A stretch of DNA of 63,719 bases, the filler included, from Collodictyon triciliatum (lineage: Eukaryota), in the NCBI GenBank assembly GCA_043381765.1. It is 6 parts of 6 records of this genome, joined end to end, with 100 filler letters (N's around TTAATTAATTAA, not from the genome) between each part and the next. Parts side by side here need not be neighbours in the genome. Positions count along the whole stretch, not along the records: positions 62,445 to 63,719 come from JBHJMP010001333.1; 5 more parts are not named here. One strand, written 5' to 3'. Every line of letters starts with the position of its first letter. Position 1 is the stretch's first letter. The position numbers were made by a program, and so were the translations under genes. The notes beneath the pieces are model-generated. The model was given only the letters and a program-made list of their open reading frames with translations, searched no databases and was not told the origin of the DNA. Below, piece by piece: positions 467 through 63,719 of this stretch.

Positions 467-569
467 CTACGTAAATGTGGATGTAGGATGCAGACGGAGG
501 GAATCGCACAAACACTCAGGTATGGACGGCGAGAACATGTCGTTCTTTGCAGTTTATTCAGCTCATCAA

Positions 570-10908: not shown

Positions 10909-10939
<31 letters not shown>

Positions 10940-11334: not shown

Positions 11335-11395
<61 letters not shown>

Positions 11396-11709: not shown

Positions 11710-11744
<35 letters not shown>

Positions 11745-19163: not shown

Positions 19164-19240
19164 GTAAGCAAAAAAAAAAAAAAAAAAAAAAAATCTTTTT
19201 TTTCTTGAGAAAGTGTTTTTTAAATTTTTATAAAAAAAAA

Positions 19241-39458: not shown

Positions 39459-39799
39459 NNNNNNNNNNNNNNNNNNNNNNNNNNNNNNNNNNNNNNNNNN
39501 NNNNNNNNNNNNNNNNNNNNNNNNNNNNNNNNNNNNNNNNNNNNNNNNNNNNNNNNNNNNNNNNNNNNNNNNNNNNNNNNNNNNNNNNNNNNNNNNNNNN
39601 NNNNNNNNNNNNNNNNNNNNNNNNNNNNNNNNNNNNNNNNNNNNNNNNNNNNNNNNNNNNNNNNNNNNNNNNNNNNNNNNNNNNNNNNNNNNNNNNNNNN
39701 NNNNNNNNNNNNNNNNNNNNNNNNNNNNNNNNNNNNNNNNNNNNNNNNNNNNNNNNNNNNNNNNNNNNNNNNNNNNNNNNNNNNNNNNNNNNNNNNNNN

Positions 39800-41972: not shown

Positions 41973-42540
41973 TTATACGAGTGTCAGCTCCATCGATTTG
42001 GATATCGAGACTTATGCAGCGGCCAGGAATAATCTCTCTGAAGCGAGGATTGAGTTTGGCTATCCATTTCTTGCATAAAAACGCTACACCTGCGTGTCTC
42101 TGATGATTGTCGTCACAGAACCACATTTGTGGACCTTTCCATATTTCATCATTGGTTAGATTGTCAGGGCTGAGCCATGTTTCTTGGAGGCAGATGATAT
42201 CTGCATGAGTGAAAAGAGCAGTGTTTAGGGCCTCTTTTCTTTTTTGGGGGTCGTTAATCCCCGTAACGCTCCACGACAGAACGTTAAAACGCATGAAAAG
42301 TCTATTGGCTTTTGGAGGCCGTAGCCTCCGGTGATTGGTCCTCTCCGCTGGAGCTGGGTTACTCAGAGTGGGATGGTTTACTCGATTTGTCCTTCATTTG
42401 GCCGCTACTATTATTGCTCGTGGTTCGGCCAGGATTTGTCAGATAGTCTTGGGCTTTGGGCTGTAGCCCCTTTGTAGCTGGCGTGTTGGGAGATGCACTC
42501 TGTTGGTCATTGGCAACCCTTGGTTCCACTTTTTTACCTC
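41973..42540 (-). mobile_element. L1/Tx1-type LINE: ORF1 tail plus start of ORF2 APE endonuclease (ATG 42294), cut by contig edge
   Basis: MRFNVLSWSVTGIN..DIICLQETW..AGVAFL..GRCISLDI is an APE endonuclease signature. It is preceded 7 nt upstream by the stop of a low-complexity ORF1 tail that has an internal TAA. Confidence 0.88.
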
Positions 42541-42731
42541 ATCGGATGATAGGAAAATTTACTTGAATATCCCATTTAGTTTTCTTCCTTGTTGCGTGGT
42601 TTTCATATAAGATGCATCTGTAGACTACTTCAGATGCTTCAGTAGGATTGGTACAGCTCAAAAATATTTATGTGCATTTCATTACAACAGGTTGTTATGT
42701 TTTTTTTTTTTTTTAAAAAAAAAAAAAACCA

Positions 42732-42777
<46 letters not shown>

Positions 42778-42938
42778 AAAAAAAAAAAAAAGCCAAAAAG
42801 AATAAAAACCAGCAATCGGTCGAAAATATGTAGAATATTCATAAAAAAAACTTATGCTTTTTATGACACCAATCTACCATGATTTTTATTTAGTTTTGTT
42901 AGAAAGAAAATGGTGTCAGAAAGTCAAATTCATGTTAT

Positions 42939-45900
42939 CTATGCATTTGGACGGATGAATATTGCAGCACGTGGAGCTAGGCCTATGTGATATGTATGAA
43001 GACTATTTAATAAGATGAGATTGTATTTGGGAATGATAGTTCAAAAATTAGTAAAAAGGAAGAGGGATGAGTAAAGAGGGAAAAAGTAAAGAGTAAAAAG
43101 TAAGAAAATAAAATAAATGAGAATGAATGAAGAGTAATCAAACTAATGACCAGCTTCTCTCAGCGTTTGAGACATTGTTTCTGGGCCAAACTCCTTTCTG
43201 GGCATATTTATGGCAAGAATGAAGCCGTTTTCCTTCATTATACAAATTAGGTTAGTTATCTCAGCAAACAAATGGGCATAGCTGATTAAGGTGGGTAAGA
43301 CTAACGTGATTGTAGAATTCGGAGACGTAGGAATGTATCGATGATAGTATGTCATTTTCGCTGAATACCACTCGCACAGCGGCTCCGCTTGGTAAGCGAA
43401 GCTGTTTTATAATAAGAAATGTGAGAAAAGAGACTATACGATGCTTTAGTTGATAGAGCGCTACATGATTATGCATCACTCAACAATATGTACAACACAC
43501 AGAAACGGTTAGCATTTACAAGGAAGCTTTTGTAACAACTCTTCTTTCCCATGCAAACCTGGATGGTGCAAGGTGCCCCAGAATTAACAGAGCGCGTTTC
43601 TTGCTCTGTAGGAATCGCTCGAAGGGTAACTGCTGCAGGTTTCTGTATCTCAGCAGGTCGTGCTTGAGTCTCCGCCTTAGGTGCCTTAAATGTGATCAGG
43701 CTCAGTGGAGTCTTAACCGATTCAAATATACTTTCATTTACATGAAAATTTTACGATATAAAATTGAGAGTGTATGCTATAGTTAGGGTTAGATTCAAGC
43801 AAAATGGAAAACATCCATCCCATCTGACAAATCAAAGAACTTAAATTTAGTCACCTCTTTTGGAGTCTCTTTCACAGGGATAGCTGCTTTCTGATGGGAT
43901 TCCTGTGCAGGCGGGGTGGTCAGTGACGTGCGACTCTGTGATTTATCCATTCGAAAATAGAAAAAAAAATCATTTAAGGTTTAATGTAATATCTAATTTG
44001 TGAAAGGTGACAACGAGATAAAAAAAAAGTGGCGATGGAATGATGGGGGAAGGATAGAGAGTGACGAGGTTCAATCGATCAATTCAGTACCGAAGTGATT
44101 GATGGTGTCTGTGTGGGACGATATTTCTCAAGCTTGTTCATTTCAGCAAACTCGGTTACTTTAGAATTACAGTACAAGGTATTAATAAATTAGATGAAAG
44201 TAGAGCACGTAAGTTAATTAACCAGAAGAACAATGGAGTAGCCAGGAATTACATATATCAAGCATTTCGAATGATTCACGGAATCCTGTAATAGTTTTCT
44301 TCAGCTCTCCTGTAATTTTAATAGTCATATCTAAATAAACTTGTATACTTTGTGCAATTAAATTGATATTCTCTGAAAAAACCAAAAATTAATTAAAAAT
44401 GAAAATAAAAAACCCGTTCTAGGATCCATGATTCCAACCCAAGGATACTTGAGGACTTTGTAAAATGTTTGAATGTAGACCCCATCATCTTCGTCATGTT
44501 GTATCTAAAATCAGTAACAACATCACAATTACTATCCATCGAGTTAATTTGCCATAGCAATACGAGGAAGAATAATATATGACTCTGACATTTGACCAAT
44601 ACCGCTATTGTTGACTTTTTTTTTAAAAAAAAAAAACCTGCAAAAAAAGATACATAGTAGGCAGAATAGATTTTAACTCTAAATAAGTTATTATATTAGT
44701 GGTAGATATCGATTATATTAAGTCTACTAAATTAGTATTTTTTTAAAAAAAATAGAAAAGGCATCATTTCAATGATAGCTGCCCTTTCCTCACCTGGGTT
44801 GGACCAAGTGTCTCGATTTAGTCTTTGGCTGTTGAAGTCATCTCTTTTATGGAGGTGGATACACAGCCATTTCCCATCAAAAGACCCAACATCTTTTGCC
44901 TATCAGGGTAGAGCATTACGTCGTTGTAACAGCCTTGGGGAATAGTCTATAATTGCGGAACACATCATTAATGAACGCAGACTTACCGATTGGAATCCTC
45001 TGCGAAACATGATATCAACGGGAGGGGCAAATAGGTCGGTCAAACCTAAATTATTAGAAGATTTATCAACATTTGATCATCGTTGGAAAAGATAAGTTAA
45101 TTCGATAACATAAAGTTTGGAGATAGGGAAGATGACAAAAAAAAAAAAAAAAGTAATTTAAGCTCCAGAGACAATATAGGAGATCAATGAGTTTAATAAT
45201 TTACCAGCATCCTTCTTTTTGGGCAAAAGAGGATTCATTAGTCGCATTTCATTTTCAAAGTCACGTGTGTGGTCGATCAGAATAGCTTCTTTTTGAACAG
45301 GATTGGATACCCTACCAGGCTCTAAATATATTTAACATAAGTCTTGGAGAGAATGATAATCTCATCATCGTATTCACACTAGCACGATTCCTGTATCCAC
45401 ACTATTGATACAAAAAATGAACAATTAAATCAGAGTAACATACTAAAAAAAAACAAGAAAAAAAAAAAACAACTGGGCGTCGAATTTTATCAGCTTTGGT
45501 CTGCTAGAACTCATACCGTTCGATTTTGTGGGGGTCATGATGGGCACTTTTGTCTCTGGTGCTTTTGCAGAGTGTGCATTGGAAGCGGAGCCTAGACTTG
45601 GCTGGCGACTCAAGCGGGGTTGTTCTGTGGCTGCCTTTTGTACTGCCGATGTCTCCATTTCATCTTCTTGGGTACTACACATGTCGATGATAAGGAAACG
45701 GCAGAGGAAGACAGACTATCGCTTGTGCATTCGATAGGTAGATGAGAAGGAACATGATCAAAAGTTTGATTAATCGAGGCCATCATGAGCAAAGTTCGGC
45801 TTACTCCCTGTCCAAAAAAAACTGATTTGCAGCCAACTCCATGTCCCATCCAAAAGCCTTCAGGTATATTTCATGAATTAGTATATATATATATTAGCAT

Positions 45901-46400
45901 TAGTTATATTTGACTATTTGCCTTTTAATAGAAAAAACGCAGTCTACCTTCTCCACCTAGATTGATAATAGAAAGAGAAAGAGAAAGAGAAAGAGAAAGA
46001 GAAAGAGAAAGAGAAAGAGAAAGAGAAAGAGAAAGAGAAAGAGAAAGAGAAAGAGAAAGAGAAAGAGAAAGAGAAAGAGAAAGAGAAAGAGAAAGAGAAA
46101 GAGAAAGAGAAAAAGAAAGAGAAAGAGGAGAAAAAGAAAAGAGAAAGAGAAAGAGAAAGAGAAAGAGAAAGAGAAAGAGAAAGAGAAAAAGAAAGAGAAA
46201 GAGGAGAAAAAGAAAAGAGAAAGAGAAAGAGAAAGAGAAAGGAAAAAGGGGCACACGACTAAATATTTGATTCCATCATGTTGTGTTGCGTTGTTTTTCA
46301 ACTAACAAATCACCTCCAAGTAAAAAGAAGCACGATCGCGGGTGGCACCGGTCAAACTAGTGAACTCGTCAAAAAGCTTGCTTTTGTTTGCGCCGCTCAT
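42939..46400 (-). CDS. UBXN7: UBA-UAS-UBX domain protein (UBXN7/Ubx5-like), multi-exon
   Basis: UBA-like FTSLTGATRDRASFYLEAFGWDMELAANQFF; LTDLFAPPVDIM; FNSQRLNRDTWSNP; YPWVGIMDPRTG; UBX QLRLPSG..MPRKEF..TLREAGLAPRAAIFI; TAG 42941-42939. Confidence 0.88.
45969..46240. repeat. (AGAGAA)n microsatellite in UBX gene intron 1
   Basis: Tandem repeat read directly. Confidence 0.97.
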
Positions 46401-46995
46401 TTCACCTGCTGATTTTGCCCGTTGCTTGCTTCGTGTTCTAAGCCAACTCTCTGTACACCTGCCGTAGATCCAGAACAGATGTTCAGTTTTCTGGGAGGAA
46501 CAACAAAGACTTTGCACAACACCCACAAGGAAGTAATTCAGGCCGCGCAGGGTATTTTTCCTACCCCCACAGTAGTGATAAAATACAAAGAAACAAAGAC
46601 TATAGCAACTAGAAACCTCAAAGGCGCAAGTATTTTCTTTTCCGATCACTTATTAGCGGTAAGCGTGGCTGGTGAGGACCGAGTTTCGGAACCTTCGATT
46701 GCACTGCCGCTGATTGATTGTTGGATGCAAAAGGCGAAGAGACAAGATGCAAGCAAAACGGGAAAAGAAAAAAAAAACTAGACGTTGAAACAAATGTGGA
46801 AAATAAAATGACGCATTTTAGTGTGTGCCTCTGGTGAACCTTCAAGGCTGTCCTCTAGTAAATAAGTGAAGCAGAATATAAGTGTCATATATTTTCGACC
46901 TCATGGACAGGAAGCTGGTGTGTGCGATGTAGCTACGTTTATATGCGCGTTGTGTGTGTGTGTGTGTGTTAGTTGTTTGGGAGTTTGGCTTCAGG

Positions 46996-48263
46996 TCAGT
47001 TTGAAATGGGGCGGAAGGGCGTTGGGGCCGGGAAGCAGATGCCTTGGGAGTCACAGCCGTAGGGGCAGTAAGGCGGGGACGTGGCGCCGACAAAGAAGCA
47101 GTCGCAGTTGTAGCAGGGGCAGGAGACGCCATACGTGAAGGTGTACAGGCCGTTGCTGAAGCCAGAGAGGAGGGTGCCCACATATTCGGTCACGCCGTAG
47201 GGAAGTGCGGTGTATCTGGCGGGGAGGAGGGGATGGCTTAGAGTCCCTGCTGGTGGTGCGCTTCATGCGGCATGCGTAGATACATATATGTGCGGACAGA
47301 CGAGNNNNNNNNNNNNNNNNNNNNNNNNNNNNNNNNNNNNNNNNNNNNNNNNNNNNNNNNNNNNNNNNNNNNNNNNNNNNNNNNNNNNNNNNNNNNNNNN
47401 NNNNNNNNNNNNNNNNNNNNNNNNNNNNNNNNNNNNNNNNNNNNNNNNNNNNNNNNNNNNNNNNNNNNNCGAGAAGTAGTACTTGTTGCGATTGTTGTCG
47501 ATGGTGAAGAAGCCTGGTGAAGAGAAAGTCTGCTTTTAGATTCTGCACTCTCCGCTCGTTGGCTTGCTTCATCAAGGTCGCGGCCAGCAGCAGGGTTGGG
47601 TGCTGGATGTGTCTTTCCTTTGTGTTTTTCATGTCCCCTTTCATTTCGGGACGGGGTAATTAGGTCTTTCTTACCGTAGAATGTGTCGCACATCATGCAA
47701 AGAAGTCGGCGGAAGGCGAGAGAGCAGTTCTCGGTCTGCGGGATGGTGGAGAAGCGATTTCTGAGCTCATTGCCGAAGGGGCCTGAGCAGCAGCCGGGGT
47801 TGTATCTATTGCACAGAAACAGGTTCAGCTTTGCTTAGAGGCGTATGCCTTGCTTCCTTTTGCTGAGAGGGGGATATGTCGCAAGACTTTGCGGTAAACC
47901 TGGAGCAGTAGTCGGATGAATCAACAGGCGCAAAGGGAAGGCCAGGAATGCCTTCGGGCTGCGTGGAGGTGTTGAAGAAGCGCAGACAGGTATTCTGGTG
48001 TCCGCTGTATATTCCTCCGAGTTAGAGTTGGCATAATATTCTATTGTCTTGCTGGGACGTGCAACTGAAAGGCTTATTATTATAATTTTTCTGTGCACCG
48101 TGGTTCCTTTGATGCCTTCACCAAGCAAACACCCAGTTTTACTCTATTCAGAGACGACATGGTAGGAATGAATAGAAGCGTACATGTCTGAGCGAGCCAG
48201 CGTAGGGTAGACAAGGGCAAATACCAAGCAGGCGCAGGCCAAGGTCTTTGTGGTGGCGTTCAT
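46996..48263 (-). CDS. Secreted Cys-rich protein with HHIP-N/folate-receptor-like CRD, spanning an N gap
   Basis: Spliced: MNATTKTLACACLVFALVYPTLARSDI/GHQNTCLRFFNTS..DYCSR/YNPGCCSGPFGNELRNRFSTIPQTENCSLAFRRLLCMMCDTFYG/FFTIDNNRNKYYFS..gap..YGVSCPCYNCDCFFVGATSPPYCPYGCDSQGICFPAPTPFRPISN*. Confidence 0.65.
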
Positions 48264-48637
48264 TCTATTAGGCGAGCTGCCTACAAAATAGCCACGTCAG
48301 GCTTCCTGCTTGCCCAGCAGCCATTGCCAAGAGGCTGGTTGCATTTATCGGTGTGTAGAGCCTTGTGTCCCGCTCTTCTTTGTGGGCTTTTTCCACAGTC
48401 TCTGCTGAGTTGCCCTGCCTACGAAACGAATCACAGGTTTGATTTACTTGTTCGGCAGACGAATCCCCGCGTATCTGCGTGAGACTTATACCCACAAGTA
48501 TTCTTGGGCTGGAATGAGGGTTACCGAGGGTTCTTATCGGGTGGGCTGGTGGGCCCGCATTCCTTATTTGCACGCCTTATTGATGTATTTCCCAGATATA
48601 GAACTTTTATTGAGAGTCGGTTGTGGAGGGTAGATTT

Positions 48638-50748
48638 CTAGACGCTGTCGTTCAGTTTCACAAACGAATCTGGTGCAATATTGCTCTTTTCCTGCTTCAG
48701 GACCCAACGACGATACCAAAAGTGCGAATCATCCACTGGGATGTGGCTCGGGATGGCCATTAGCTTTTTTTTTTTAAAAAAAAAAAATTATTAATCACGA
48801 TGTTTTTTTCTTCTAACTTTTTGGTAGCAACAGAGAAAGGAATACTTCCTGCCATACATTCGGGGACATTGCACAAACTCACGTTAAATTCGGAGACAGC
48901 ACCAGCAATCACCAGCCCCTGTACGTTGACAGACGAACCGTCCCCAGTAAAGGAAGAGTAGGCCGATGAAAAAAGGATGGTAATTGGGAACAAGAAGAAG
49001 GGCGTCGTGATGTTGATGAAGATAAAGAATATGTACCAAAGAATCTTTCTCAATAAGAGTCTGTCGCCCAACCTTATTCAAATTCAAATAGATAAATGAA
49101 TCTGATAAGACCTAAAAAAAAAAAAAAAAAGAAGAAAGAAGAAAGAAGAAAGACCAAATAACAACAGTAATAAATATAAATGACAGCAAAATGATCAAAA
49201 AATAAAATAATTGAGACCAGAGACTGTGAAATTACCTTTCGCTCTCCGATATCCAACCGGTAACGGCAGACAAAAACAATATTATAGAAGAGTATGATAT
49301 TATATTTCGAAGTTCCCCTGATAAATTAGTTAGAGAGCTCAAAATGATAGCCATAGTGAAAAGAAATAAGCATCTGACATTTGAATCCATTTTTTAGTTA
49401 TTGATAAACAATTTTAATCTATTTATTATTATGAATACAACGTTAGGACAGGAATGAACGAAAATATACCAGGACTTATATCCACGGCGAATTCGAACGA
49501 AAGGTCTGGTAGCATGTAGCACCCATAAACTTTATTCGGAAGAAAGCATAGGACAAACAAAAGATGATACAGGTAAAATCCTGAGATGTTGGAGGTCATC
49601 CTTTCAAAGAGATATTCTGGGGAAAACATCTTGACACGAAGGAAAAGCATGATTGGGAACAAAACCACCTTTATAAGGGTTTATGTAAAAATTAATAGTT
49701 AAAAATGGTTTTGGAAAGGTGAATTTTTTTTTCATATAATACATCCATGAGAAAGATATGGGACGGTAAAACTCACATATACAAATTGTGTGATTATAAT
49801 ACCAACGTCGATGATAAAGTATAGTGAGGCTGAAAATGCTTCATTTGATATTCCCTAATCCAAAATAAAAAAAAATTTAAGCTTCATAAAACAAAAAAAA
49901 AAAACAGCCATCATAAATATATGAGTCTCATAACAGGAAACATTTCTTTGGGGTTGCAAGATGGATTACTAACTTGAAAACGATCTGCGCTTATGGGGAA
50001 CAGATCATTTCTATTTGGAACGATGTATGATTCGCAGGTGTCATCGTTTTTCACCATTGTGTACTGTTCGTTGATTGCAGTTTCAAGACAAAAGTGTGTT
50101 TTTTCAGAGATGTAGCACACGCTGGAATCATTCCGAGAAGCAAAGTATGTGAAATTTCCCTATGTTAAGATTATTTTACAACATCGTATTGTATTCTATT
50201 TGGATTATCAAAAAAAAAAAAAAAAACATATATATCATACGTAGTTATCACACTAGGATATCTTGTGAAACGCATACGGTGTAGTTATCAAATCCGTTGT
50301 AGGTGAAAAAAACGTATAGCAGCAGGAGCGAAGGCCGAATCACCATCCAGACGAAAGAGGCGCGTGCCGTCTTGATTTTGAAAGGAAAATAGGATTTTAC
50401 GAATACTTATAAAATGTCTAAAAGCTAGTCTGTGTAAAATTTTTCATATGTGTTTTTTCCCCATTTTAAATGAGTTGGTCTATAGGCTATCCCATGGTTG
50501 ATATATGATTTTTAAGAGAAAAAGACAAAATCTAAACTGGAGTATTCCACTATAGCATTTGTTTTTCTATAAAAGCATTTTCTAACATTTATTAAAAAAT
50601 GGAGGAAGATCAAATATAATGAGCTGAATAAAAATTGCAATAAGAATACGGCAAAATTTAAAACGATGAGGATGTTGGAAATCCTTACATTTTCCTTGTT
50701 GGCAGCCTCCGGATCCTCTTTGCTCACAGCTCCAAGAACTGCATCCAT
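48638..50748 (-). CDS. Orphan multi-pass membrane protein, multi-exon
   Basis: In-phase exons carry several hydrophobic segments (FVWMVIRPSLLLLYVFF, SLYFIIDVVVLFPIMLFL, FYLYHLLFVLCFL, ILWYIFFIFINITTPFFLFPITILF) and a Cys/N-x-S/T-rich first loop; TAG 48640-48638. Confidence 0.65.
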
Positions 50749-50843
50749 TCTTTTCTGGTTGCTTTTTCAGAGGCAATATATGATATAAATACACGCAAAA
50801 ATAACATGGAGACAATATGAAAAATGGCATGGCAATAAAAGGC

Positions 50844-51002
50844 CAAAACAAAACAAAACAAAACAAAACAAAACAAAACAAAAAAAAGTAAAGAAAAGTA
50901 AAGTAAAGAAAAGAAAAGAAAAGAAAAGAAAAGAAAAGAAAAGAAAAGAAAAGAAAAGAAAAGAAAAGAAAAGAAAAGAAAAGAAAAGAAAAGAAAAGAA
51001 AA
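50844..51002. repeat. Compound (AAAAC)n-(AAAAG)n microsatellite
   Basis: Tandem repeat read directly. Confidence 0.97.
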
Positions 51003-51864
51003 GGAGAAACTCCTGGCTGGATATGATGAATTTGAAGGACAAAAACGAAGACGGGAAACACTCGGAGTGCTGTGTTGCACACACCCCAAGTGGGAAGCAA
51101 GACATGGCTGCCTCTCACACAAGCCCACTCTCACATTGCCGACTCCGCCCTCTCTGAAAGGCCAAACACCCTTTGCTGCTGGGCGGACTCACCCGGCCTT
51201 TTGTTGCCTGCTTTGGGATTTGGCCGGGTTGATTGGCACTTGCGTCTGTCAAAATTTCACGCCTTTGTCAAAGAAATGCCCGCCACTCTCTACTCATCCA
51301 GAAGCAAGCACCATTATTTGCGCCGTGGGAGGATTGTTCTTTCATATTGTTGCCCAATGAGTTTATGTGGTATGCGTCTTGGCAGCCACTAGAGATCTTT
51401 ATTGCCTTTGTTGTCTCCGTCATTCCTCTAGCCTTTCCTCTACTTCTTTTCCTTCCTTTTTCTTTCCTTTCCTTTCCTTCCCTTTCCTTTCCTTTCCTTT
51501 CCTTTCCTTTCCTTTCTTTTCCTTTTTTTTTTTCTCCTTCTTTTGAAATATGCTTGGCTTGGCCTTCGTACATTCTGAGGGCGCCTTTTGGAACATAGCC
51601 TTTGATCTGGCCACAACAACTAAGCCCTTGTTTTTACAGACAGCACAGGAACGCCTTGTCCCATTGCCGCCAAGGACCGACAGCGTTACTTGATCACGAT
51701 CCACCCCGTTAAATAGATGGACGCCCAGTAAGAAGACCAAGATCACCATTCCATCCTTCTTCGCTGTCCTATTCTATTGCCTTCGATGTGTGTGTGCGTT
51801 TTTTCTTTAAAAAAAGAAGATAAAGATCAACAATACGCTTCGGTCAAAAGCTGTCAAATAATAT

Positions 51865-53587
51865 ATGACTTCTCTCATTTCTCAAGACATTGACTTCAAC
51901 CACAGGAAAAAAAATAAACAAAAAATAAAAAAAAACTATATATTTGCTTCAATAAACCAGATAAAATGCTGGCAACAACAACAGCAATAACAATAGAACA
52001 ACAAGAAAATTAAAAATCTCGTTTTACCACAAATTGAGTTGTGAATAAGTATACCAATCTTTATAGTCAACTAAGCATCTTACTTATACCGTGATATAGC
52101 GAGGCTTTCCAACGATTTTTTATTAACACGGAATGGGCTACGCTGAGAAAAAAAGCTTTGGAAGAAGGCCTTACGTCATTTCCTCTTCGAGGGTTATGCT
52201 GGAGGGTATGCCTATCACATTTCATTTTTCGATAATGTGTTTGAGTGCCCTTGGCAATCGCAAATTGTTTCTTGCATTTTTCTTGCTGCTTCTTCGCTCT
52301 TTTGCTTTCCCTTATTTACTTTTGCCAATAACTCATCTTACTAGGACAGGTACCATATTTTTATTATCAATATTTTATTATAACAATACTTATTCTATTA
52401 TAGGTTTTTTTAGAAGTTGTACCTCCAAATGAAATAATAACCTGGGACAAAGTGGTCCAAAGCTCAAGAAATCTTTACGTCAGATCGAGGCTTGAATGCT
52501 TTAATCCAAAGACACTTCCAAATGCCATTGAGATGGTCCAGCTGACTTCAACATCTGCAGTTCCATCAGTAACGTTTTTCTTACACGAATATAAGATGCT
52601 TCGACTTATGCAAACCCTGACAATCAAGTATCAAACTATCGAATGTTCGATATTATAATCCAACTATTCCTTCTTTCTTCTTTTTTATTTTTATTTTTGT
52701 TTGTGATAGGTTAATATAGACGCAGTTGCCATAGAATATGATGAAGTTAAAAGGGAGATTAGGCAAGACATCGAGCGAACGTTTGCATCATTCATTCTAC
52801 CTCCTTTCTTATGTCTATCTTTTCCTTCACATTAGGTTACCAATTACATAGATAATCAACAGGACAATCCAAAACTAGATTCCCCGACCAATTATTCTTC
52901 CAAGATGAGAAGATACGAACGATGATGTTGAATATTCTCTATATTTATGCCGTTCAACATCCCAGCGTCAAATATAAACAAGGAATGCACGAGCTCTTGG
53001 CTGTGATAATCTTTGTACTGAATAACGAAACCATGAAAAATCGAGGGTGATGCATCATTCAATATACTTTCCTACTGTATGCGTGAAACTTTGGTGATAA
53101 GAAACAATATTTGTCGCGTTCTTTTCCTATATTCCTTTGAGATTACCCAAATACTCTGAATGTTGTTTTGTTCACACACACACACACACACATACACACC
53201 TTTTATTATGCATGTATTAAGGATACCCATGTGTCGATTAATCAACTAACTTTCATTTACCACTTGCATAACAGAGATTTGCTCAGCTTCTTGATTGATG
53301 AAGAGTATCTCGAGCATGACTCTGCTACTTTGTTCTTCAAGCTTATGGAAACCTGTGTCGCTTGGTTTATTTCCACGACGACCGAACAAGTATGAATTAT
53401 TCAACTTCCTACGCCAAAAGAAGATTTCTTTTATATCCCGTCGGATGGCTTTGAACCTGCCATATAATAATATTTATATTATTGCAAAAAAATAATTTTT
53501 AAAGTCTTTTTTTATCATGTTACATAGGCAAGCCCCTTTCAAAAAATATCCAGAGCAATCCAAAATCCCAGAAAAGAAGATTATGAG
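51865..53587 (+). CDS. TBC1D5: TBC-domain Rab-GAP, TBC1D5-like, 5' part
   Basis: LRGLCWRVFL; IRQDIERTFPDQLFFQ (Arg finger); YKQGMHELLA (Gln finger); EEYLEHDS..F.KLM. First exon uncertain; truncated at contig end. Confidence 0.87.
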
Positions 53588-53660
53588 GTTATATAATATA
53601 AAAAAAATTATGTCTGATCGTCTTTCTTTGAATCAAATAAAGGGAAAAAATGTCTGATCG

Positions 53661-53737
<77 letters not shown>

Positions 53738-53838
53738 NNNNNNNNNNNNNNNNNNNNNNNNNNNNNNNNNNNNNNNNNNNNTTAATTAATTAANNNNNNN
53801 NNNNNNNNNNNNNNNNNNNNNNNNNNNNNNNNNNNNNC

Positions 53839-54024
53839 AGAAGTGGCCAATCGACGAGAACGTATGTCGTCAATTACAAGGCTGATGTATTAGGGATGTT
53901 TCACCAGTATGTAGAGTGGATGGGGGCCACCGAAGAAGGCGGACATCCAAAGAACGAAGGACCGGCGCAACAGAAAGAGATGCGTCATGAAGTAGAGGAT
54001 GAGAAAAGGGATGCACAAAATTAA
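53839..54024 (+). CDS. Probable terminal exon of an unidentified gene
   Basis: Open frame from the contig edge, RSGQSTRTYVVNYKADVLGMFHQYVEWMG..EKRDAQN*, followed by an AATAAA-rich 3' region. Confidence 0.45.
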   Translation, partial: RSGQSTRTYVVNYKADVLGMFHQYVEWMGATEEGGHPKNEGPAQQKEMRHEVEDEKRDAQN

Positions 54025-54761
54025 AAGAAAGAATAAATAAATAAATAAATGAATGAGACAAGGGAATCATTGATTTGATTTTCATTAATACATAAAAAAA
54101 AGAAACCAATAAATTATGCATGTCGGTGGGGTCGAAATGTGAACCACTTTATTGAAACTTAATTTTTTTTTATTAGTGTATATTTTAGAAGTAGTGGACA
54201 TTTACTTATTTCTTGCGAAAATGTAGTTCAATTAATTTAATTTTATTTTTCATCATCTGTTTCACTCTACCAAAAAAAAAGGGCTATTCCCAATCAAATT
54301 CTTGATATTTTCTTTTTCTTTCATGCATGTGAAAGCTATTAAGTAAATTCGGACAAACTATGTGTGAGGTATTTTCTTACAGAGAAAATTCTCAAAAAAA
54401 TGCCCTGTATTCCAGAGCTTATATTGAAAATACTGGCTTTATCACTGGTACTCTCGAGTATGATTATCATTTTTGGTAGAATCACATTTAGATAGGTGTA
54501 TTTTGAGTTTAGAAACAAAAGGGAGTTGACTTTTTATGTGTTGATTAGTGCATTTATGATTTTTAGTGGCTTTACTCAAATGTAGAATCAACTTAAGAGA
54601 GGCGCACTTGGCTGAAGGGCGGGTTATGCCACTGCCAAGAACTTTTCAAGAGTGAGTGATGTAAGGCGGTGTATTGCGTATGTTCCGACGATATTTGAAT
54701 AGCCTAATATCACAACCGAAAGATGGCTTATCTTTCCGGCAAGAAACACGAACGCAGATAT

Positions 54762-56285
54762 TCACGACGATTTGTGGATTGCAAGAGACGCCCTGTCTTC
54801 ACAAAAAATCATATCTCCATCACGAGCGTTGAGCTGCGCAAGCGTCTTTGTCGGGACCGAGATGCGTTCTAGCCCGAAGCGTCCCTCTGCACCCACATCA
54901 TCATAGTACAGAGTCTGGTTCTTTGATGGGATTCCAAAAAACTCTTCGCACATTTCCTTCAACTGGCGCGCGCAAGTGTAAACAGACAGTGTGCGAAGCA
55001 CAGATTGGTGGCCATCAGCACGTAGCAGAATGGAGACCGCTAAAGGTGCTCTCAAATCCACAGATGCCAGCGGCTCCAATTCACCGTGCTTGGAAATGAG
55101 TCTCTCCATGTGTTTCCGAGTGGCCTCGCTGTTGAAGTCCATCGAAGCACGAACAGATATATCCAGCTGGATTTTAGGGTCGTAGTAGCGGATGAATGCG
55201 CGCTCTGCATCCTGTAGAAAGCAAATGATGAAAGCATAAGCATCCTGGCAAATCATTGAGTGTGTTTGTGAACAAAAATAGCCCGGATGTATTAGGAAAG
55301 GTATGAAATCGTCATTTTCCGAATATTGTGCAGATTAATCAATCAAAAAGTGAAGTTATGTGAAAACTTATGATTATTGCAGGATACGTACCTCCCGCTC
55401 TTGTTCGGTTATTGAGCCTCCATTGAGGACTCTCAGATTGGGAAGTCGTCCTATTACTAGGAATCGGAACAGGGTTACATCAGAGTAACGGGACGCCAAT
55501 GGTGTGTTTGAAAGCCGGATTTCGGTCAGAGATGGGAATTGGAGAAATGAGTCCACAGAGTCCCATGAATCTATGATTGAGTCTGCGACGTTGATTGACA
55601 AAAGACAAGGCAGTGGTGAAGGCACATTAAGCCTCATGACCGGATTCTCAGAGAGGATGAGTTTGCGCAGGGCAGGAGTAAAGTGCTCAAGAAAAGCAAA
55701 CAGCTTGTCGGTGGACTCGATGCCGTTTCCCACCAGACTCAGCAGCTCTAGGCTCAGCAGGGAGCCCGCATGACTATCGACATTTTCCGGAACTGTTCCA
55801 AGGCCAGATGCGCGAAGGACAAGCTGCTGCAGATGGGGAAAGCAACGCGCGATGCGGATGATTTGTGGCCACGTCTGCTTGGCTTCGTTGAGAATGAGGA
55901 TGCGCAGATGAAGGCAGACAAAGGCAGACGCTGATGCCTCGTCCATCTCCCCGAGCGGAACAGCACTCAGGTCGAGCTGCTGCAGTCGTGTCCATTGGGC
56001 ACATAGCGAGAAGACGTCAGGCCATGAAAGTCCCTTGGCCCCTCTCAAATCTGCCTCCTCAACCATGGGGCAGGCCTGCTGCAGCGGCTCGCTCTCGCTT
56101 GTGGGCTGCTCGTATAGAGCTTTGCGGGTCAGGTCGAGGTTGTGAAAGGAAATCACGCGCAGTTGTGTCAGGGCTGGTCGACGCACTAGATGATGTCGGC
56201 GAAAGGCTCCCGCTTCTTCTGGTGTGAGGAGCTGCTTGGGTGTGTACTTTTCTCGGATGGCTTCTGCAAGGACGTGCAGGCTCAT
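54762..56285 (-). CDS. TBCEL: Tubulin-folding cofactor E-like protein (LRR + ubiquitin-like), one intron at about 55213-55392
   Basis: AIREKY N-terminus without CAP-Gly; LRRs; VIGRLPNLRVLNGGSITEQERE/DAERAFIRYY; KHGELEPLASVDLR; C-terminal Ubl domain. Confidence 0.92.
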
Positions 56286-57499
56286 AGCTCTTCTGTGGTA
56301 CAAATGATGAGGGAGAGTCAACACGTTTTCTTTTTGTTTGTTTGCTTTTTGCTTCTTTTTGCTTTTTTTTTTNNNNNNNNNNNNNNNNNNNNNNNNNNNN
56401 NNNNNNNNNNNNNNNNNNNNNNNNNNNNNNNNNNNNNNNNNNNNNNNNNNNNNNNNNNNNNNNNNNNNNNNNNNNNNNNNNNNNNNNNNNNNNNNNNNNN
56501 NNNNNNNNNNNNNNNNNNNNNNNNNNNNNNNNNNNNNNNNNNNNNNNNNNNNNNNNNNNNNNNNNNNNNNNNNNNNNNNNNNNNNNNNNNNNNNNNNNNN
56601 NNNNNNNNNNNNNNNNNNNNNNNNNNNNNNNNNNNNNNNNNNNNNNNNNNNNNNNNNNNNNNNNNNNNNNNNNNNNNNNNNNNNNNNNNNNNNNNNNNNN
56701 NNNNNNNNNNNNNNNNNNNNNNNNNNNNNNNNNNNNNNNNNNNNNNNNNNNNNNNNNNNNNNNNNNNNNNNNNNNNNNNNNNNNNNNNNNNNNNNNNNNN
56801 NNNNNNNNNNNNNNNNNNNNNNNNNNNNNNNNNNNNNNNNNNNNNNNNNNNNNNNNNNNNNNNNNNNNNNNNNNNNNNNNNNNNNNNNNNNNNNNNNNNN
56901 NNNNNNNNNNNNNNNNNNNNNNNNNNNNNNNNCGATGCAAAGTCACCCGATTTAATATTCTTTTGTATCACCCGAAAAAGCCCGTGTCCACAACACACCT
57001 TTAAAACGTGGAAGCTTGCTTTGCCTCCTATCTTTCCCTTTGTCTGCATGTTTTTCCCCTATCAAGATGCTGTACTCACCTCCAACCTTGGGGATATATT
57101 CCGTGCTCCAGAATCGTGCGAGCAGCCGAAGCTAGCACAACCGAATCTTAAAGCCACTCATTACAAAGTTCGGCTTAGAATGCTTTTTTTTTTTTATTGT
57201 ATCCAAACAGGGAAAGGGGAGATTTATCGGGGGAGATAAAACACAAAAAGTATTTTATAGGAGAAAAAATGAGGCACGTGTGATAAGAACGAGGTGGTAA
57301 AAAAGTGCACCTGAAGCGTTAATGTGCCGGGATGGGCAGAAAGAGCCATAGACACTATCATTTTTACCACCATCCATAATCATCACAAATCAAGGCTTTT
57401 TTTTAGGACAGGACCATACCCAAATTCTCACTCATTTTGTTATGATAATACTGAAAGAAAAAAAAAGGAACAGGTAAATGAGGCTCTGGTCAAGCTGAG

Positions 57500-58168
57500 T
57501 CACACATTGGTATGTGGATGGCGGATAGAATAAGGAGAGAGGCATTGCGGGACTATCGGAGATGCCCCGGCTTTGGAGACAGGACGACGGGCAACCGGGC
57601 AGCGAACAGCAACAGCTGATGAGTCTGACGGTCTTTGTGCCGAGCGCGCACTCATGTGTCGAACAGTCTCCAATAGGAGCATAAGATCGCCTTCGGGGAC
57701 CGTCACTCCACTCAAACTCTGCTCTTTCGCCTTTGCCTTTGTGTGGTTGTGGTTGTAGTTGTAGTTGTAGTTATGGTTATGGTTGTGTTTACGAATCTGG
57801 CTTTGCCGCTGTTCTTTGGATCGGCCTTGCTGCGGAACATATGGGCGGCTTTGTTGGGGCTGCTCAACCGAAGGCCACACGTGGGGACTCGAGCGGAGGT
57901 GGGCTGAGTCTGTGTTTCGAGAAGCTGGTAGTGGAGGTGGCTGTTTTGACAGGCGAGAAGACAGTCAGGTGGGGTTGACAGGGGAGACATGTTGCGACAG
58001 ATTCGATGAGGTACTTACGTGCGTCGCGTGTGTGGTTGCGTGCCATGATTGTGTCAGAAAGTGCTTGCGGACGGAGGACAGGTCGGGCAGAGAATCACCG
58101 GAGCTGTCGGAATCACTTTCGTGTCTGTTTTGTTGCGCAGTTGTTGTTGTGAGGCTGTCTGATTCCAT
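57500..58168 (-). CDS. Low-complexity hypothetical protein, two exons
   Basis: MESDSLTTTT..ATH, an intron (GTAAGT..CTGAC..AAACAG), then in-frame PPPLPASRN..HNHNHNYNYN..DLMLLLETVRHM. Confidence 0.4.
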
Positions 58169-58206
58169 CCGAGCTGCTTGTGTGGGGGGTTTTTTTTTGT
58201 TTGCTT

Positions 58207-58237
<31 letters not shown>

Positions 58238-58240
58238 GAT

Positions 58241-58290
<50 letters not shown>

Positions 58291-59442
58291 AGGTTTCTTT
58301 GTGCTGTCGGCCACGGCTGCTGTCTGTGAGAGAGACTGAGTAGCAAATGCAGGAGGCTGCGTTCTCGTGCAGAGTCTGCGTTGTGGGTAATGTGTTCTCA
58401 CCTCCAGCTTCGGTCTTGCTGTGCGCCAAGGAGAGTGGTATATGCTTTGATGTCACACCCACGGCCGGCGATGTGGGCAACCAAAAAATAAAATAGTGTT
58501 GGGAGACCGAGCAGGCAAAACTTTGCGGAGGCTGCCTTTGCATTCTGGGATATTTTCTGAGACTGTTCTGTGAAATGGTATCTGTGTTCTCTCTCCCATT
58601 CCGTTTCTGTAAGTGATGTCAATTTTTTTCCCGATCTCAGATTACTTGCTCCAGTTTTGGATGGGCGATTCACCTGCTGTGGGTATGCTTATTTTGGTAT
58701 GGTCTACCGCATTCATCCGCTGTCTTCTCTTCTATTTTTGCCTGGGCGTCCTCTTGTCTCGGCGCTGCGATGTGGGGGCGCATGGCCAAGCATCAGAGAC
58801 GTTGCGGCATGCAAGGCACGATGTAATGGTGGGTGTTCGTTGGGTGAATAACTGGCGAGTTATGGCCAGCCGCCTCCGCCTCCCAAAGAGCAGTCTCTGC
58901 CTTTCAGGTCAAATACGCTCAGGCATCGGGAATCCGTCGTGGATGTGCCCCTGTGTTGGGAGGAGAGCCCTAATCGCTTGTATCTGGAAGTGGTTTTATT
59001 TTCACAGTCTGTGTCTCTGGAAGTGAGAAGCGGCGGTGTAGGAAGGAGGGGCCGGAGATGCTTCAGAAATTGAATAGGAATCATAGGCCAGGGCAGAAAG
59101 ATGGGAGGATAAGAGGGACGCAATAGGATATGTTGCTCTTTTCAGACAGGGGCAGTGTGCGTCCGAGTCAGCGTACGGTACGAAGGTCGGTTAACCGCAG
59201 CGTCGAGAGTAAGCGGGCACCAGAAGAGAACCGAGTACCTCACAATGGCAGGGGCACTACCAACTATTCGGATGGTCTGTGAGCAGGGTGGTGTGTGGAA
59301 TAAGGTGAGAGTGAACAGAAGAATTAAAAGCATAAACCCCCCAGCATTTACTGACAGGAGGTCTCTTGTCTTGTGCAAACATGCTGCGAATTCTAACAAT
59401 GCGCACACACCAAACATGCTCCCAGCGCCTTGGACAGGGTGC

Positions 59443-60668
59443 TTAGTACTCATCCATGGGAGGGCAGGAGCAGATCAGATGGCGATCGCCATATGCATTG
59501 TCAATGCGGCCGACAGAGGGCCAGAACTTGCGGGCCTTGACCCAGGGGAGCGGGAACGCAGCCTTTTCTCTCGAGTATGGGCGGTCCCAGTTATCGTTCA
59601 CAACAACGTCGCAAGTGTGCGGGGCGTTGACAAGAACGTTGTTCTTGGGGTCAGCCTTCCCTTCCTCCACTTCACGAATCTCCTGTCGGATGCTGATGAG
59701 GGCTTCCACGAGTCTGTCGAGCTCAGCCTTGGGCTCGCTCTCTGTAGGCTCAATCATGAGTGTGTTGGGGACGGGGAAGGACATGGTCGGAGCGTGGAAA
59801 CCTGCAATGCGTCCGTAGAGTGTAAGTTATATTTGGTGTCGAATAAAACAAATGGGTCACAGAACGGCCATGAGTGAATTGTGGTGATTCAAACTCTACC
59901 GTAGTCTTGAAGTCTCTTGGCGATGTCTTCGGCCTGGATTCCAGACGACTTGAGGGTGCGGATATCCATGATGAATTCATGGGCGCAGAATCCTAGCATT
60001 TGATTATTCAGTGTACTATTTGTTAGAATGTTCCCGATTCGCCAGTTATCCTTTCTCTCTGACTGCTTTAAGCTTATGTATGTGAAATGGATTAAAATGT
60101 ATGGGATGTGCTGTTATGGACAAATGTATTGTGCGTTTACCTCCGGGTCCACTGTACAACATATCGTAGTGACCGGACAGCTTCTTGCGCATGTAGTTTG
60201 CATTCAGCAGGGCAACCTAGTCAAGTATTAAGATTGGGACGCATCCTTTGACAAGCGCACGAGAGAAAAGAAATTGAAGAAATTAAGTTCTTGTGTCTGG
60301 TGGGTGCAGTAGCTTTACCTGAGTGGCTTTCTTGAGACCAGCACCTCCCATCAACTTGAGATATACCCATGTAATGGGCAGGATGCTTGCGCTTCCGAAG
60401 GGGGCTGCAGAGACTGGGCCAATTGACTGCACCCGGATTTAAATTGGTCACATGTGTAAGTTAGAGACTGGAAAAATGAAGTCCTGAGCTTGTTAGTAAA
60501 GATACAGAGGGCACGAGGGTACCTGGTCAGTGCCGGTGTGAATGACTGGATGGGTTGGCAGGAAGGGGGTGAGGTGCTTGGCGACACCAATCGGACCCAT
60601 TCCAGGGCCTCCTCCACCGTGAGGGATACAGAATGTCTTGTGGAGGTTCAAGTGACAGACATCGGCAC
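59443..60668 (-). CDS. GLDC: Glycine dehydrogenase (glycine cleavage P protein), C-terminal exons
   Basis: [97 protein letters not shown] stop. Confidence 0.97.
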
Positions 60669-60708
60669 CTGGGGCAAGGGGTTCGATGGTTAGTGTATCT
60701 ATTTCTTT

Positions 60709-60742
<34 letters not shown>

Positions 60743-61569
60743 TTGGGTTTTAATTGGGAATTTGTTTNNNNNNNNNNNNNNNNNNNNNNNNNNNNNNNNN
60801 NNNNNNNNNNNTTAATTAATTAANNNNNNNNNNNNNNNNNNNNNNNNNNNNNNNNNNNNNNNNNNNNACATCAGAATCATTACATATTTCCATTGCATTA
60901 GCTCAAAAATAAAGTAAAAAAAAATGCACCAAACAATGTCAGAAGAAGAATAAAAAAAAACAAAGGTGAATAGATGGATGCGTGATGTCTGGGGGTGGAC
61001 ACACAAACAAAAGTCGCCGAATCTGCAGACACAGTACACCCGCCCCTACCGACTACTATCTGTATTTCCGGTATGAGAATGCAGCTGCCCTTCGATAAAG
61101 ATAAGATCATCAAATATGGACCTAGATTACAAACGATTCTTCGACATTCATCCAATATGGAGCCGCCTCCCTTTTTCGCCCACTTGAAATCATGCACTAC
61201 ACTTTCATCATTTGTGGATACATACCGTGGCCATTAAAAACCCTTATTTCAAAACCAAACCAACATTAATTTTTCAATCTCAGCCCGTAATTCTCGACTT
61301 CAGAGAGCAGAAATCGCCCCAGGTCTACCAAAACCAGCGCCCGCACCCATATTCAGCCCATGAAAAGCTCGACCACTTTGCCTCCTCACATGATCGAGCG
61401 GATATATGGCTAGGAGTGAAGCCAAGAGAAAGAAGATTATCATTATCATTATCATTACTCTAAAAATAAAAAGAAGGAAGGTGGCTGCCGCTCAGCCTGT
61501 TGCTTCTTGGCTGGCTTGCCCTGTCGATTTACCCGAGCGTTTTCTGCAATAAAGTCAAAACAGGAAAAC

Positions 61570-62344
61570 ATGATGAACATCTTCCCCCAAATCGCCCGCC
61601 GATCCCGTCTGATTCTTGGGATGGCCTCGGTCTCTGTCGGAGTCGGAATCGCCGCGTCTCGAGGTTACGTGCGCCCTGTCGTTGCCGAAGAAGAAGGCGC
61701 CTTCAGCCCAAAGGAGTTCCGGTTGGCCTAAAAACAAATATTCGCATTTTTGCCTGTGTCTATTCCTGCCACACACTCATATATTTACTTTTATATATTT
61801 CGCTTTCTACTTTGCACTTGAAGAAGCAGCTTCTAACCTTGCCTGCTCTCTTTAGTGCTTTCACCCTCCGCGAGAAAATCTCTCTCAACCACAACACCGC
61901 CATCTACCGCTTCGATCTTCCTAAAGACAAGAAGAGCGGTCTGCTGTCCATTTTCTTTCTTTTTTTTCCCCCTCGTTCAGAATCCAATATTTTTTTAATT
62001 TTTCCCTTTTTTTTTAATACTACTTGTTTCGTGTTTTTTTTTTCCTCCTATTCCTTACGCAACATATTAAGTGGCAGCAAAAAAAATCCGAAAAAAAAAA
62101 AAAAAAAAAACTGGAAATTGAGAATAGAAACATGTTCACTTAGGACTGTTTGTTACGTCCAAACTAAACACGTATCACTTATCAAATGTCTATTCACAGG
62201 TATGTTTGTTGCTTCATGCCTTCTCACCCGCGCCGAAGTCGATGGAAAGGAAGTTGTCCGCCCCTACACACCAGTCAATGACCCTGAAGCCCGTGGATAC
62301 GTCGATCTTCTCGTCAAGGTCTACCCTGAGGGAAACATGTCCAA
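61570..62344 (+). CDS. NADH-cytochrome b5 reductase, mitochondrial MCR1-like, 5' part
   Basis: Arg-rich presequence plus hydrophobic anchor; HNTAIYRFDLP; VASCLLT; FAD motif VVRPYTPV; LLVKVYPEGNMS. Confidence 0.92.
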
Positions 62345-62444
62345 NNNNNNNNNNNNNNNNNNNNNNNNNNNNNNNNNNNNNNNNNNNNTTAATTAATTAA
62401 NNNNNNNNNNNNNNNNNNNNNNNNNNNNNNNNNNNNNNNNNNNN

Positions 62445-63719
62445 TCTATGGAAGTGACAATGTGATAAATTTAGCACAGACGAAACTGAACGAATGCGAA
62501 TAGGACAGAATTTAATGATCACTTTCAAACAGTGACAACTAATGCCAGATTTCAAGCACCGGATGGAGACACAGCGGGGTATCGCTTTACTAATAGTGGG
62601 GACAATAGAGTTGTTTGTAACAGTAATGTCGTTTCTCTTCGTGCACAGGGTGTAAATACATTATCTGTTTCAAATACAGCAGCGACTGTCAACGGCAATT
62701 TATCAATATCTCAACAGATCATTCAACCAACCAATGTAATTACTGTAACTGCCAACAGTCAAACTTTTCGACCTGGGCGCAACATTAGTAACAATGTTTA
62801 TAGTTGGATATGGCGGGTTTTTACACCTGTGGTATTAAGATTTCTTAGCTCTGGCTTTACAAATGGAATGTCATTTTATATTGTGCCGAATAGCAATTTA
62901 TCAGGCGCTGTTCTTCAATTAACGCCAATTGCGGGTGTTACTTTACGAGTTTATCAAGGAGGGCTAACAAATAATTATACTACGACAATCGATGTATCAA
63001 CACGCGCATCTCTTCACTGTACATTTCATAATAATATCTGGTACATTAATACACATTGGATGGCAAGCAATGCAACTTTTCCAGGGACGGTTACAGCTAC
63101 CGGGTTCAGTTCTTCGGGTAGCGCATCGATCACAAATAATCTAACCGTGGGTGGAAATGTTGCGGCGACTAGTGTAGAATTGCCTTCGGGGCAGGAAGTT
63201 CAGTTTGGTACTGTTTCTTCGGATACAAATTGCATCAGAGGCGGGACAGAGAGCTCACAATTTTTTGTAAGTATTACTGTCAATACGAGTCGGAATGTAA
63301 TTTTTAGACCTGATAAAACCGAATTTGATAAACATATTGAACAAACAAAATGCCCAATCCAAGATTATGCGAACCATAACACGTCAGGAGAAATCACTCT
63401 CGGGGCTAATAGTCCTCCGATATATTTTATTAGTCGTCCTCAGCAACACACTGTAGTCGCAAAATTAAAACTTCCGTCTGCAAATACTGCTAGTATTTTA
63501 GATGGATGGACTATTAAAATTATACACCTTGACCAGGGTGGGTTTGCAAGTGCTTTTGCTCAAGTAGAATTTGCTTCAGATAGTGTAAATTTGTGGTCCG
63601 ATGGCACACAAACAGCTTTCAATGCTGGCGAAATTAAAAATATTCCAATTGGGTCCTGTTGGACAATTATGTGTCAAAAAACATTAAACAAGTGGGTAGT
63701 AACAGGCTGGTCCAAGCCA
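62445..63719 (+). CDS. Virus-like fibre/spike protein, partial and intronless; main frame open 62490-63719
   Basis: 410 stop-free codons by manual translation, rich in T/S/N/V/G beta-repeats (TVNGNLSIS, TVTATGF, NNLTVGGNVAATS) with knob-like modules (KLKLPSANTASILDGWTIKII..KWVV). An upstream FSTDETERMRI motif lies in an adjacent frame. Confidence 0.7.

Follow-up and report, generated by a model that had tools for sequence, protein, structure and literature searches.

A probable fragment of a Polinton-like virus fibre gene on a free-standing contig of the Collodictyon triciliatum assembly

We analysed a 63,719-nt stretch of DNA (the window, filler included) from the assembly of the eukaryote Collodictyon triciliatum (GCA_043381765.1), whose last piece, positions 62445–63719 (JBHJMP010001333.1, hereafter the fibre contig), carries the 3' part of a gene that probably codes for a virus-type fibre. 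The window consists of six contigs (1–19240, 19341–41872, 41973–53737, 53838–60767, 60868–62344 and 62445–63719) with five identical 100-nt separators between them, each made of 44 N, TTAATTAATTAA and 44 N (linker positions 19285, 41917, 53782, 60812 and 62389). The separator in front of the fibre contig (62345–62444, no strand) is artificial and non-biological, and its TTAATTAATTAA core places a stop in all six frames. A short six-frame-stop motif between N runs has been described as a contig-concatenation device that blocks gene calls across joints (bioRxiv 10.1101/2023.02.08.527609); the separator of that preprint has letters other than TTAATTAATTAA, and a literature search for the exact linker sequence found no description among the matches listed. 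Because only this artificial linker joins it to the preceding eukaryotic contig, 62445–63719 is a free-standing 1275-bp contig without genomic flanks. The cytochrome-b5-reductase exon that precedes the linker is not a genomic neighbour of the fibre contig. An earlier, sequence-only reading of this DNA had missed the linker at 62345–62444, and its view of host genes as neighbours of the fibre gene has to be given up. Flanking genes across an N44-TTAATTAATTAA-N44 linker are uninformative, and findings that span any linker in this window need the same caution.

In the frame of position 62448, the last stop of the fibre contig is located at 62487–62489, and the frame is then open from 62490 to the end of the window (410 codons). 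The sequence-only reading had described this region as an intronless frame that lacks the homopolymer tracts of the host genes. Both features were confirmed: the 410 codons contain no stop, and homopolymers of at least 8 bases numbered 0 in the fibre contig versus 1.2–4.7 per kb in the other five contigs. The translation contains the strings NNIWYI, NKWVV, KLKLPSANTASILDGWTIKII, NRTEFNDHFQ and DKTEFDKHIE. A HMMER pass over 1.84 billion representatives identified five relatives, all from metagenomes or run assemblies: P0003 (776 aa, E 9.8e-200 to 3.1e-199, 79% identity over 99% of the query), P0004 (737 aa, E 2.2e-167 to 7e-167, 74% identical), P0001 (674 aa, E 8.6e-139), P0005 (850 aa) and P0002 (718 aa). 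P0004, located on a 16.4-kb contig (L001), is the closest full-length relative. As read from the alignments with these proteins, the contig holds the C-terminal ~420 residues of a 670–850-aa protein; it begins mid-gene, and the 5' part of the gene (~260–430 codons in the relatives) is absent.

The beginning of the contig is read in more than one frame (all features of the gene lie on the plus strand). In P0001, P0002 and P0005, a single frame reads ...YG(S/T)(D/N)(N/G)VINF(T/C)T(E/D)GTERMRIGQNFND(H/S)(F/Y)Q..., whereas the window splits the same text over three frames: YGSDNVIN in frame 62447, FSTDETERMRIGQN in frame 62446 and FNDHFQ... in frame 62448. Because three frames are needed for what the relatives read in one, we placed frame changes at the short T runs 62470–62472 and 62511–62513; both were recognized from the protein relatives, as none of the four environmental runs compared below covers 62445–62659. 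The first coding segment is therefore YGSDNVIN of the fibre shaft (62447–62470), the second is FSTDETERMRIGQN with its ERMRI motif (62470–62511, with a frame change at either end), and a shaft segment in the main frame, FNDHFQTVTTNARFQAPDGD...SVSNTAATVNGNL, follows at 62511–62708. Positions 62490–62510 of the open frame are an out-of-frame reading. An F-x-T-x-x-x-ERMRI motif had been assigned to the open frame; this was not borne out, as the corresponding F-S-T-D-E-T-ERMRI is located in frame 62446, 5' of the stop at 62487–62489. An internal repeat, NRTEFNDHFQ versus DKTEFDKHIE, had also been proposed. Both strings are present in the translation, but NRTE arises when codons that the relatives translate as RIGQN are read out of frame, and what remains of the repeat, FNDHFQ versus FDKHIE, is not significant; BLASTP self-comparison of the translation detected no internal repeat. 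A literature search for ERMRI matched MRI-type words only, among the matches listed.

Further frame breaks were found downstream by comparison with environmental contigs from four public runs of four studies (habitat labels: two freshwater, one estuary, one unlabelled). These contigs were 95–100% identical to the fibre contig where they overlapped it and showed the same few single-base gaps. Relative to them, the window has five single-base length differences, all in short homopolymers, at 62765/62768, 62784, 62799, 62806/62807 and 62814/62818. The cluster (62765–62818) scrambles ~18 codons, creates no stop and leaves residues ~92–116 (SQTFRPGRNISNNVYSWIWRVFTP) garbled. One environmental record (X2 record 2) matched 62766–63155 (390 nt) with 0 substitutions and 4 gaps, another (X5 record 5) matched 62707–62963 (257 nt) with 1 substitution and 5 gaps, and no gap was listed 3' of 62818 in this comparison. 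Altogether there are seven frame breaks, all in short homopolymers and all within the first 375 nt. Read error is preferred over decay because the breaks are homopolymer-length changes only, are confined to the first 375 nt and create no in-frame stop, with 0–1 substitutions per 250–390 nt; the simplest explanation is a contig of low coverage in which errors of base calling or assembly remained. At its other end, the fibre contig stops on the last sense codon: the environmental contigs read G TAA behind 63718/63719, and all close relatives end in VTGWSKP.

Downstream of the first shaft segment, three parts of the protein were distinguished. Module B (62709–63059, residues 74–190) is a beta-sandwich 'knob' that ends in NNIWYINTHW. 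It is followed by a distal shaft (63060–63347, residues 191–286), which is disordered in the monomer model and intertwined in the trimer model described below, and by module C (63348–63719, residues 287–410), the C-terminal knob KLKLPSANTASILDGWTIKIIHLD ... NKWVVTGWSKP, whose end agrees with the WSKP of the relatives and which is likely the receptor-binding tip. Family alignments showed a conserved N-terminal part of ~65 residues, which the window lacks, a shaft of variable sequence rich in G/S/T/N and a C-terminal module, with one to three modules of ~115–125 residues and shaft segments in between. Module B is homologous to module A of P0004/P0005 (hhalign probability 94.7, E 5.9e-8), and this module A is in turn homologous to a module of P0002 (hhalign probability 94.9). 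Modules B and C, the two knob-like modules already recognized from sequence, are both beta-rich and of similar size, but mutual homology is unsupported (hhalign probability 0.2). The similarity to L001 is uneven along the gene: 63221–63719 is 95.2% identical at the nucleotide level (475/499) to L001 10140–10636, whereas 62685–63100 is only 67–70% identical to the same contig. This mosaic identity, 95% in the last 499 nt versus 67–70% upstream, shows that modules are exchanged between lineages. The switch from 67–70% to 95% falls near 63105–63225 and marks a site of recombination immediately ahead of the terminal knob.

With a profile built from the full-length proteins, the family grew to 57 relatives, 'hypothetical protein' being the name throughout. 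The closer ones (P0005–P0009) are located on contigs of 13.6–17.2 kb. In the distant ones, similarity is limited to an N-terminal LPSQTGNSGKFLTTNGS..SW motif; these proteins carry PF03406, PF11133, PF05658, PF18454 or PF01391. P0004 has one copy of this motif at residues 40–64; in the distant relatives with PF03406 (P0016, P0019, P0023, P0024 and P0044), it occurs in tandem. On the fibre contig itself, neither Pfam (E ≤ 1) nor PHROGs yielded any family, and the gathering score was not reached for Pfam phage and Polinton-like virus (PLV) fibre domains (PF03406, PF13884, PF13385, PF01391, PF12789 and others). The relatives behaved similarly, with 0 relevant Pfam families at E ≤ 0.01 for P0004 and 0 at E ≤ 10 for P0001, P0002, P0003 and P0005. 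IMG/VR was scanned with profile A4, P0004 and the capsid protein of L001 and gave no relatives. The two proteins and a 13-sequence fibre profile, when searched against PDB sequences, returned nothing usable, the only match being a methyltransferase (E 0.11). Run index matches for the fibre contig were metagenomes only (20 runs from 13 studies, best share 0.31), with no RNA run among the 20. Habitat was read from the four compared runs only; X3, X4, X6 and X8–X20, whose shares are small, were set aside.

The viral context of the family came from the contigs of its relatives. L001, the contig of P0004 (16,409 bp, 10 open reading frames, ORFs), encodes an A32-type packaging ATPase (Pox_A32, E 1.5e-9, 38.1 bits versus a cut-off of 22.8) and a D5-like primase-helicase (DUF5906, E 4.7e-13, 50.2 bits versus 27.6; phrog_1156), and it also matches primase and packaging-ATPase PHROGs. 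A 533-aa ORF had Atlas feature scores of 0.97–0.98 to clusters of Preplasmiviricota/Nucleocytoviricota viruses, some of which carry Sputnik_MCP (29% of members), Capsid_N/Capsid_NCLDV or DJR-like families, and its structure gave template modelling (TM) scores of 0.65–0.71 to double-jelly-roll capsid clusters. A small genome with a double-jelly-roll capsid and an A32-type ATPase was therefore found for the closest full-length relative, on one long contig. Because of the A32-type ATPase, the D5-like primase-helicase and the double-jelly-roll capsid protein, L001 looks like a PLV. Its fibre gene lies 19 nt behind a 267-aa ORF, and homologues of the C-terminal half of this ORF are located directly upstream of the fibre gene in two further contigs, L002 and L003, so that the order is kept in 3/3 loci. 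We designate the product of the 267-aa ORF a putative penton protein from its position. None of the 10 L001 genes is preceded by a Shine-Dalgarno-like motif, and the upstream regions are AT-rich.

Two other features of L001 were observed. At 5325–5524, where an AT-rich gap separates the primase-helicase gene from the ORF that follows, there are nested inverted repeats (65-nt arms, 89% complementary and 70 nt apart, plus a 48-nt pair), which may act as an origin or form a regulatory hairpin. Convergent with the fibre gene is a 1188-aa ORF (10670–14236, minus strand) with no Pfam family, in which a Q-rich coiled-coil-like half is accompanied by a very long Pro/Ala-rich stretch; its C-terminal part is conserved in L002 (2663–2923, 37.5% over 96 aa).

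The sequence-only reading had called for a trimeric structure prediction, and such a prediction agrees with a fibre. Residues 191–410 were predicted to form an intertwined homotrimer, with ipSAE 0.91 in each of three runs versus 0.00 for the best of 3 controls, a predicted local distance difference test (pLDDT) value of 87 (partner at least 86), at least 91% of contacts common to the runs and contacts along all of 191–293. The ipSAE mark had been calibrated on two copies, not three; 21 of 30 proteins solved as one-chain pairs attained it, compared with 0 of 23 single chains. In the monomer model, residues ~191–300 had pLDDT of 24–32, and the two models together fit a fibre shaft that exists only as an intertwined trimer. 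When module B (residues 79–192) was compared with 48,161 PDB representatives, the matches were phage spikes: 9ny6_C (Z 10.4, root-mean-square deviation [rmsd] 2.5, 98 residues aligned), 7rej_A (Z 9.6) and 24qj_A (Z 9.1), the first unrelated row having Z 5.3. Two further phage rows (Z 11.0 and 7.5) were discarded for an rmsd of 17–18, and fold matches of module C, which were weak (best Z 3.5), were not interpreted. A BFVD search at E ≤ 0.001 retrieved 180 entries, the majority being fibre-like proteins of uncultured tailed phages and giant viruses, at TM scores of only 0.14–0.24; an Atlas structure search with P0004 (TM < 0.3 by query) was uninformative.

Because the L001 contig carries viral genes, a homotrimer is predicted and module B resembles phage spike domains, we interpret the protein as a virus-type fibre. 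The virus-like fibre gene of the sequence-only reading therefore stands as a virus-type fibre with modular knobs, for which a PLV fits best among the sources then considered; the endogenous status given to it is unsupported. On balance, we favour an independent 1275-bp contig with the C-terminus of a PLV fibre, derived from a co-sequenced virus or a stray fragment, with no demonstrated chromosomal insertion.

Several observations weigh against this assignment. The capsid link comes from one long contig, whose fibre is 74% identical, and two short ones, not from the contig in the window. The penton assignment is itself tentative: the AlphaFold model of the putative penton protein failed (pLDDT 33), and its only PDB profile match is a weak one (E 0.68) to chain 6ncl_a6 'P1', which we take to be the PBCV-1 penton protein. 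In L001, the integrase-core match of a 655-aa ORF is below threshold (rve_3, 18 bits versus 26.5), and no terminal repeats were found in this contig, which may be incomplete. For the 410-aa translation, AlphaFold gave a monomer of low confidence (mean pLDDT 46.1), and the fold match of module B depends on a middling-confidence model (pLDDT 53–76, the best part of the monomer). It is conceivable that the frame breaks exist in the DNA itself, as mutations in an integrated copy that is no longer active. Preplasmiviricota also include tailless phages, which leaves a slight possibility of a bacterial double-jelly-roll virus as the source. Finally, the Atlas clusters nearest to P0004 by features (0.91–0.93) are viral without exception, and Uroviricota is the label of most.

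The last two points bear on a source in contaminating bacteria, in which case a bacteriophage, or a double-jelly-roll phage without a tail, would have contributed a tail-fibre or spike gene. One of the Atlas clusters has T4_gp9_10_N in 11% of its members and another is a phage tail-fibre C-terminal family; the fold matches are phage spikes, the L001 ATPase also matches a PHROG named terminase large subunit, and there are distant relatives with the LPSQTGNSGKFLTTNGS..SW repeat and PF03406, PF11133 or PF18454, some on contigs of 36–79 kb. However, tblastn against 50,697 phage records yielded nothing at E ≤ 0.01, the fibre contig has 0 PHROG families, and IMG/VR has no relatives. A pattern scan of 185,579 prokaryote species genomes, a method that finds only fairly close relatives, gave 33 matches, of which 0 were confirmed. 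The L001 capsid protein (533 aa) is of the nucleocytoplasmic large DNA virus (NCLDV)/virophage type, no portal or tail genes were found among the 10 ORFs, and the lack of Shine-Dalgarno-like motifs in L001 also speaks against such a source. What is shared with tailed phages is the fold of module B, at the fold level only. A tailed phage is thus unlikely as the source, and a bacterial virus in general appears improbable to us.

We regard as highly improbable that the gene is a cellular host gene for an intronless, adhesin-like surface protein. The contig is part of a eukaryotic assembly, and beta-rich repetitive surface proteins exist in protists. However, all 5 relatives among the 1.84 billion representatives are metagenomic, the neighbours of a relative are viral genes, and the gene is kept beside the same upstream ORF on small AT-rich contigs. 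In addition, the fibre contig has no introns, no long homopolymers and a composition unlike that of the host contigs.

A PLV copy integrated in the sequenced eukaryote, with an assembly broken by repeats and frame breaks that are real inactivating mutations, is a more serious alternative, although one we consider doubtful. PLVs are reported to integrate and expand in protist genomes (PMC12220804). The weak integrase-like match in L001, the retention of the fibre contig in a eukaryotic assembly whose other contigs are cellular, and seven frame breaks in 1275 nt are consistent with such a copy. On the other hand, there is no junction, the fibre contig being bounded by the artificial linker and by the contig end, and no ORF of L001–L003 other than the fibre matches the window. 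The breaks affect only homopolymer length in the first 375 nt, at the low substitution level given above and with no in-frame stop. The 3-mer distance of the fibre contig is 0.017–0.031 to L001–L003 and 0.039–0.056 to the other window contigs, and the k-mer comparison that had been suggested thus placed it nearer to its metagenomic relatives than to host contigs. Viral hallmarks were also sought in the rest of the stretch: 96 other window frames of at least 100 aa gave 22 families, all cellular (including glycine dehydrogenase, FAD_binding_6, Pkinase, Mon2/DCB, Ndr and TPR), and no capsid, ATPase, polymerase or integrase family. With six glued contigs, no flank and no viral hallmark in the other five, an endogenous viral element, as first proposed, is not supported. 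The break pattern, the tiny size of the contig and the position of its two ends, one within the gene and the other where the gene ends, favour a co-sequenced virus of low coverage over an old insertion; a young integrated copy is conceivable.

Under the favoured interpretation, a fibre fragment of a co-sequenced PLV, the source would be a small (~14–17 kb) double-jelly-roll DNA virus of Polinton-like kind, so far found in water metagenomes only. Its fibre protein, predicted here to be a homotrimer, would be anchored at the capsid vertex by the conserved N-terminal part that the contig lacks, and the fibre gene would lie directly behind the putative penton gene, as in the relatives (3/3 loci). 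The intertwined beta shaft may bear one to three beta-sandwich modules of ~120 residues, with the C-terminal module binding a cell-surface receptor. Modules are swapped between relatives by recombination, which is seen as mosaic identity, and such exchange may alter host range. Given its modular mosaic build, the fibre is a candidate for determining the host range of these viruses, and it may provide a weak lead to the host. More tentatively, and clearly less probably than a co-sequenced or stray fragment, the contig may be the footprint of a ~17-kb freshwater PLV that infects, or is integrated in, the sequenced eukaryote, with a fibre of an unannotated family that carries exchangeable ~120-residue knobs on an intertwined trimeric shaft; if so, a virus clade known purely from metagenomes would gain its first host lead. 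In the assembly, this 1.3-kb viral contig with its many errors should provisionally carry a flag for possible contamination.

Some other features of the window concern the remaining contigs. Plain N runs at 39459–39799, 47305–47469 and 56373–56932 look like ordinary scaffold gaps. Contig 53838–60767, which carries a glycine dehydrogenase C-terminal exon and an LRR frame, has a GC content of 0.47 versus 0.36–0.39 in the three larger contigs. The start of the second contig (19341–20276) contains several long open frames that overlap on both strands; one frame examined singly had no Pfam family, and the segment may be a low-complexity or repeat region.

We compared the fibre with several known systems. 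It resembles PF03406 (Phage_fiber_2) in that the N-terminal region of the family has one LPSQTGN.G..LTTNGS..SW copy, which is found in tandem in PF03406-carrying distant relatives. In contrast to PF03406 proteins, however, this motif lies outside the contig in the window, and the contig and its close relatives are below every Pfam threshold. Module B superposes on accessory domains of phage spikes with an rmsd of 2.2–2.6 over 89–98 residues: the distal domain of the Pa223 capsid spike (9ny6_C, residues 195–294), the N-terminal region of the CBA120 tailspike TSP4 (7rej_A, residues 79–180) and the C-terminal domain of the Solidus tailspike depolymerase (24qj_A, residues 611–701). Sequence identity in module B is only 8–14%, and the fibre, unlike these spikes, is without an enzymatic beta-helix body.

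Adenovirus fibres, which belong to the realm of double-jelly-roll viruses, are penton-attached trimers with a shaft and a knob. On the reading proposed here, the fibre would share with them an N-terminal vertex anchor, a trimeric shaft, a distal knob and the same realm, an analogy drawn from general knowledge. It differs in that no sequence or fold match to an adenovirus fibre was obtained in Pfam or, with a monomer model whose shaft is disordered, among the fold matches listed.

The closest known counterparts are the fibres of PLVs themselves. Phage-like, penton-attached, homotrimeric modular fibres have already been described for these viruses, including cryptophyte and other protist PLVs and Gezel-14T (PMC12220804, which also mentions unnamed 'deep homology' fibres). 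Unlike those fibres, the protein has no C-terminal chaperone domain and ends in a knob of ~124 residues, and the domains that PMC12220804 lists for them (Peptidase_S74 chaperone, laminin_G_3, collagen repeats, avian adenovirus fibre, phage tail repeat and BppL_N) were undetected in the contig and its five closest relatives. The kind of protein is thus already known, and the fibre family itself is small and unannotated: it is without a Pfam or PHROG model and so far confined to small double-jelly-roll virus contigs from water. Like the PLV fibres already described, it is a long modular protein encoded beside capsid genes of a double-jelly-roll virus of ~14–40 kb, expected as a homotrimer on the penton that would serve in cell attachment, with modules shuffled between relatives (PMC12220804).

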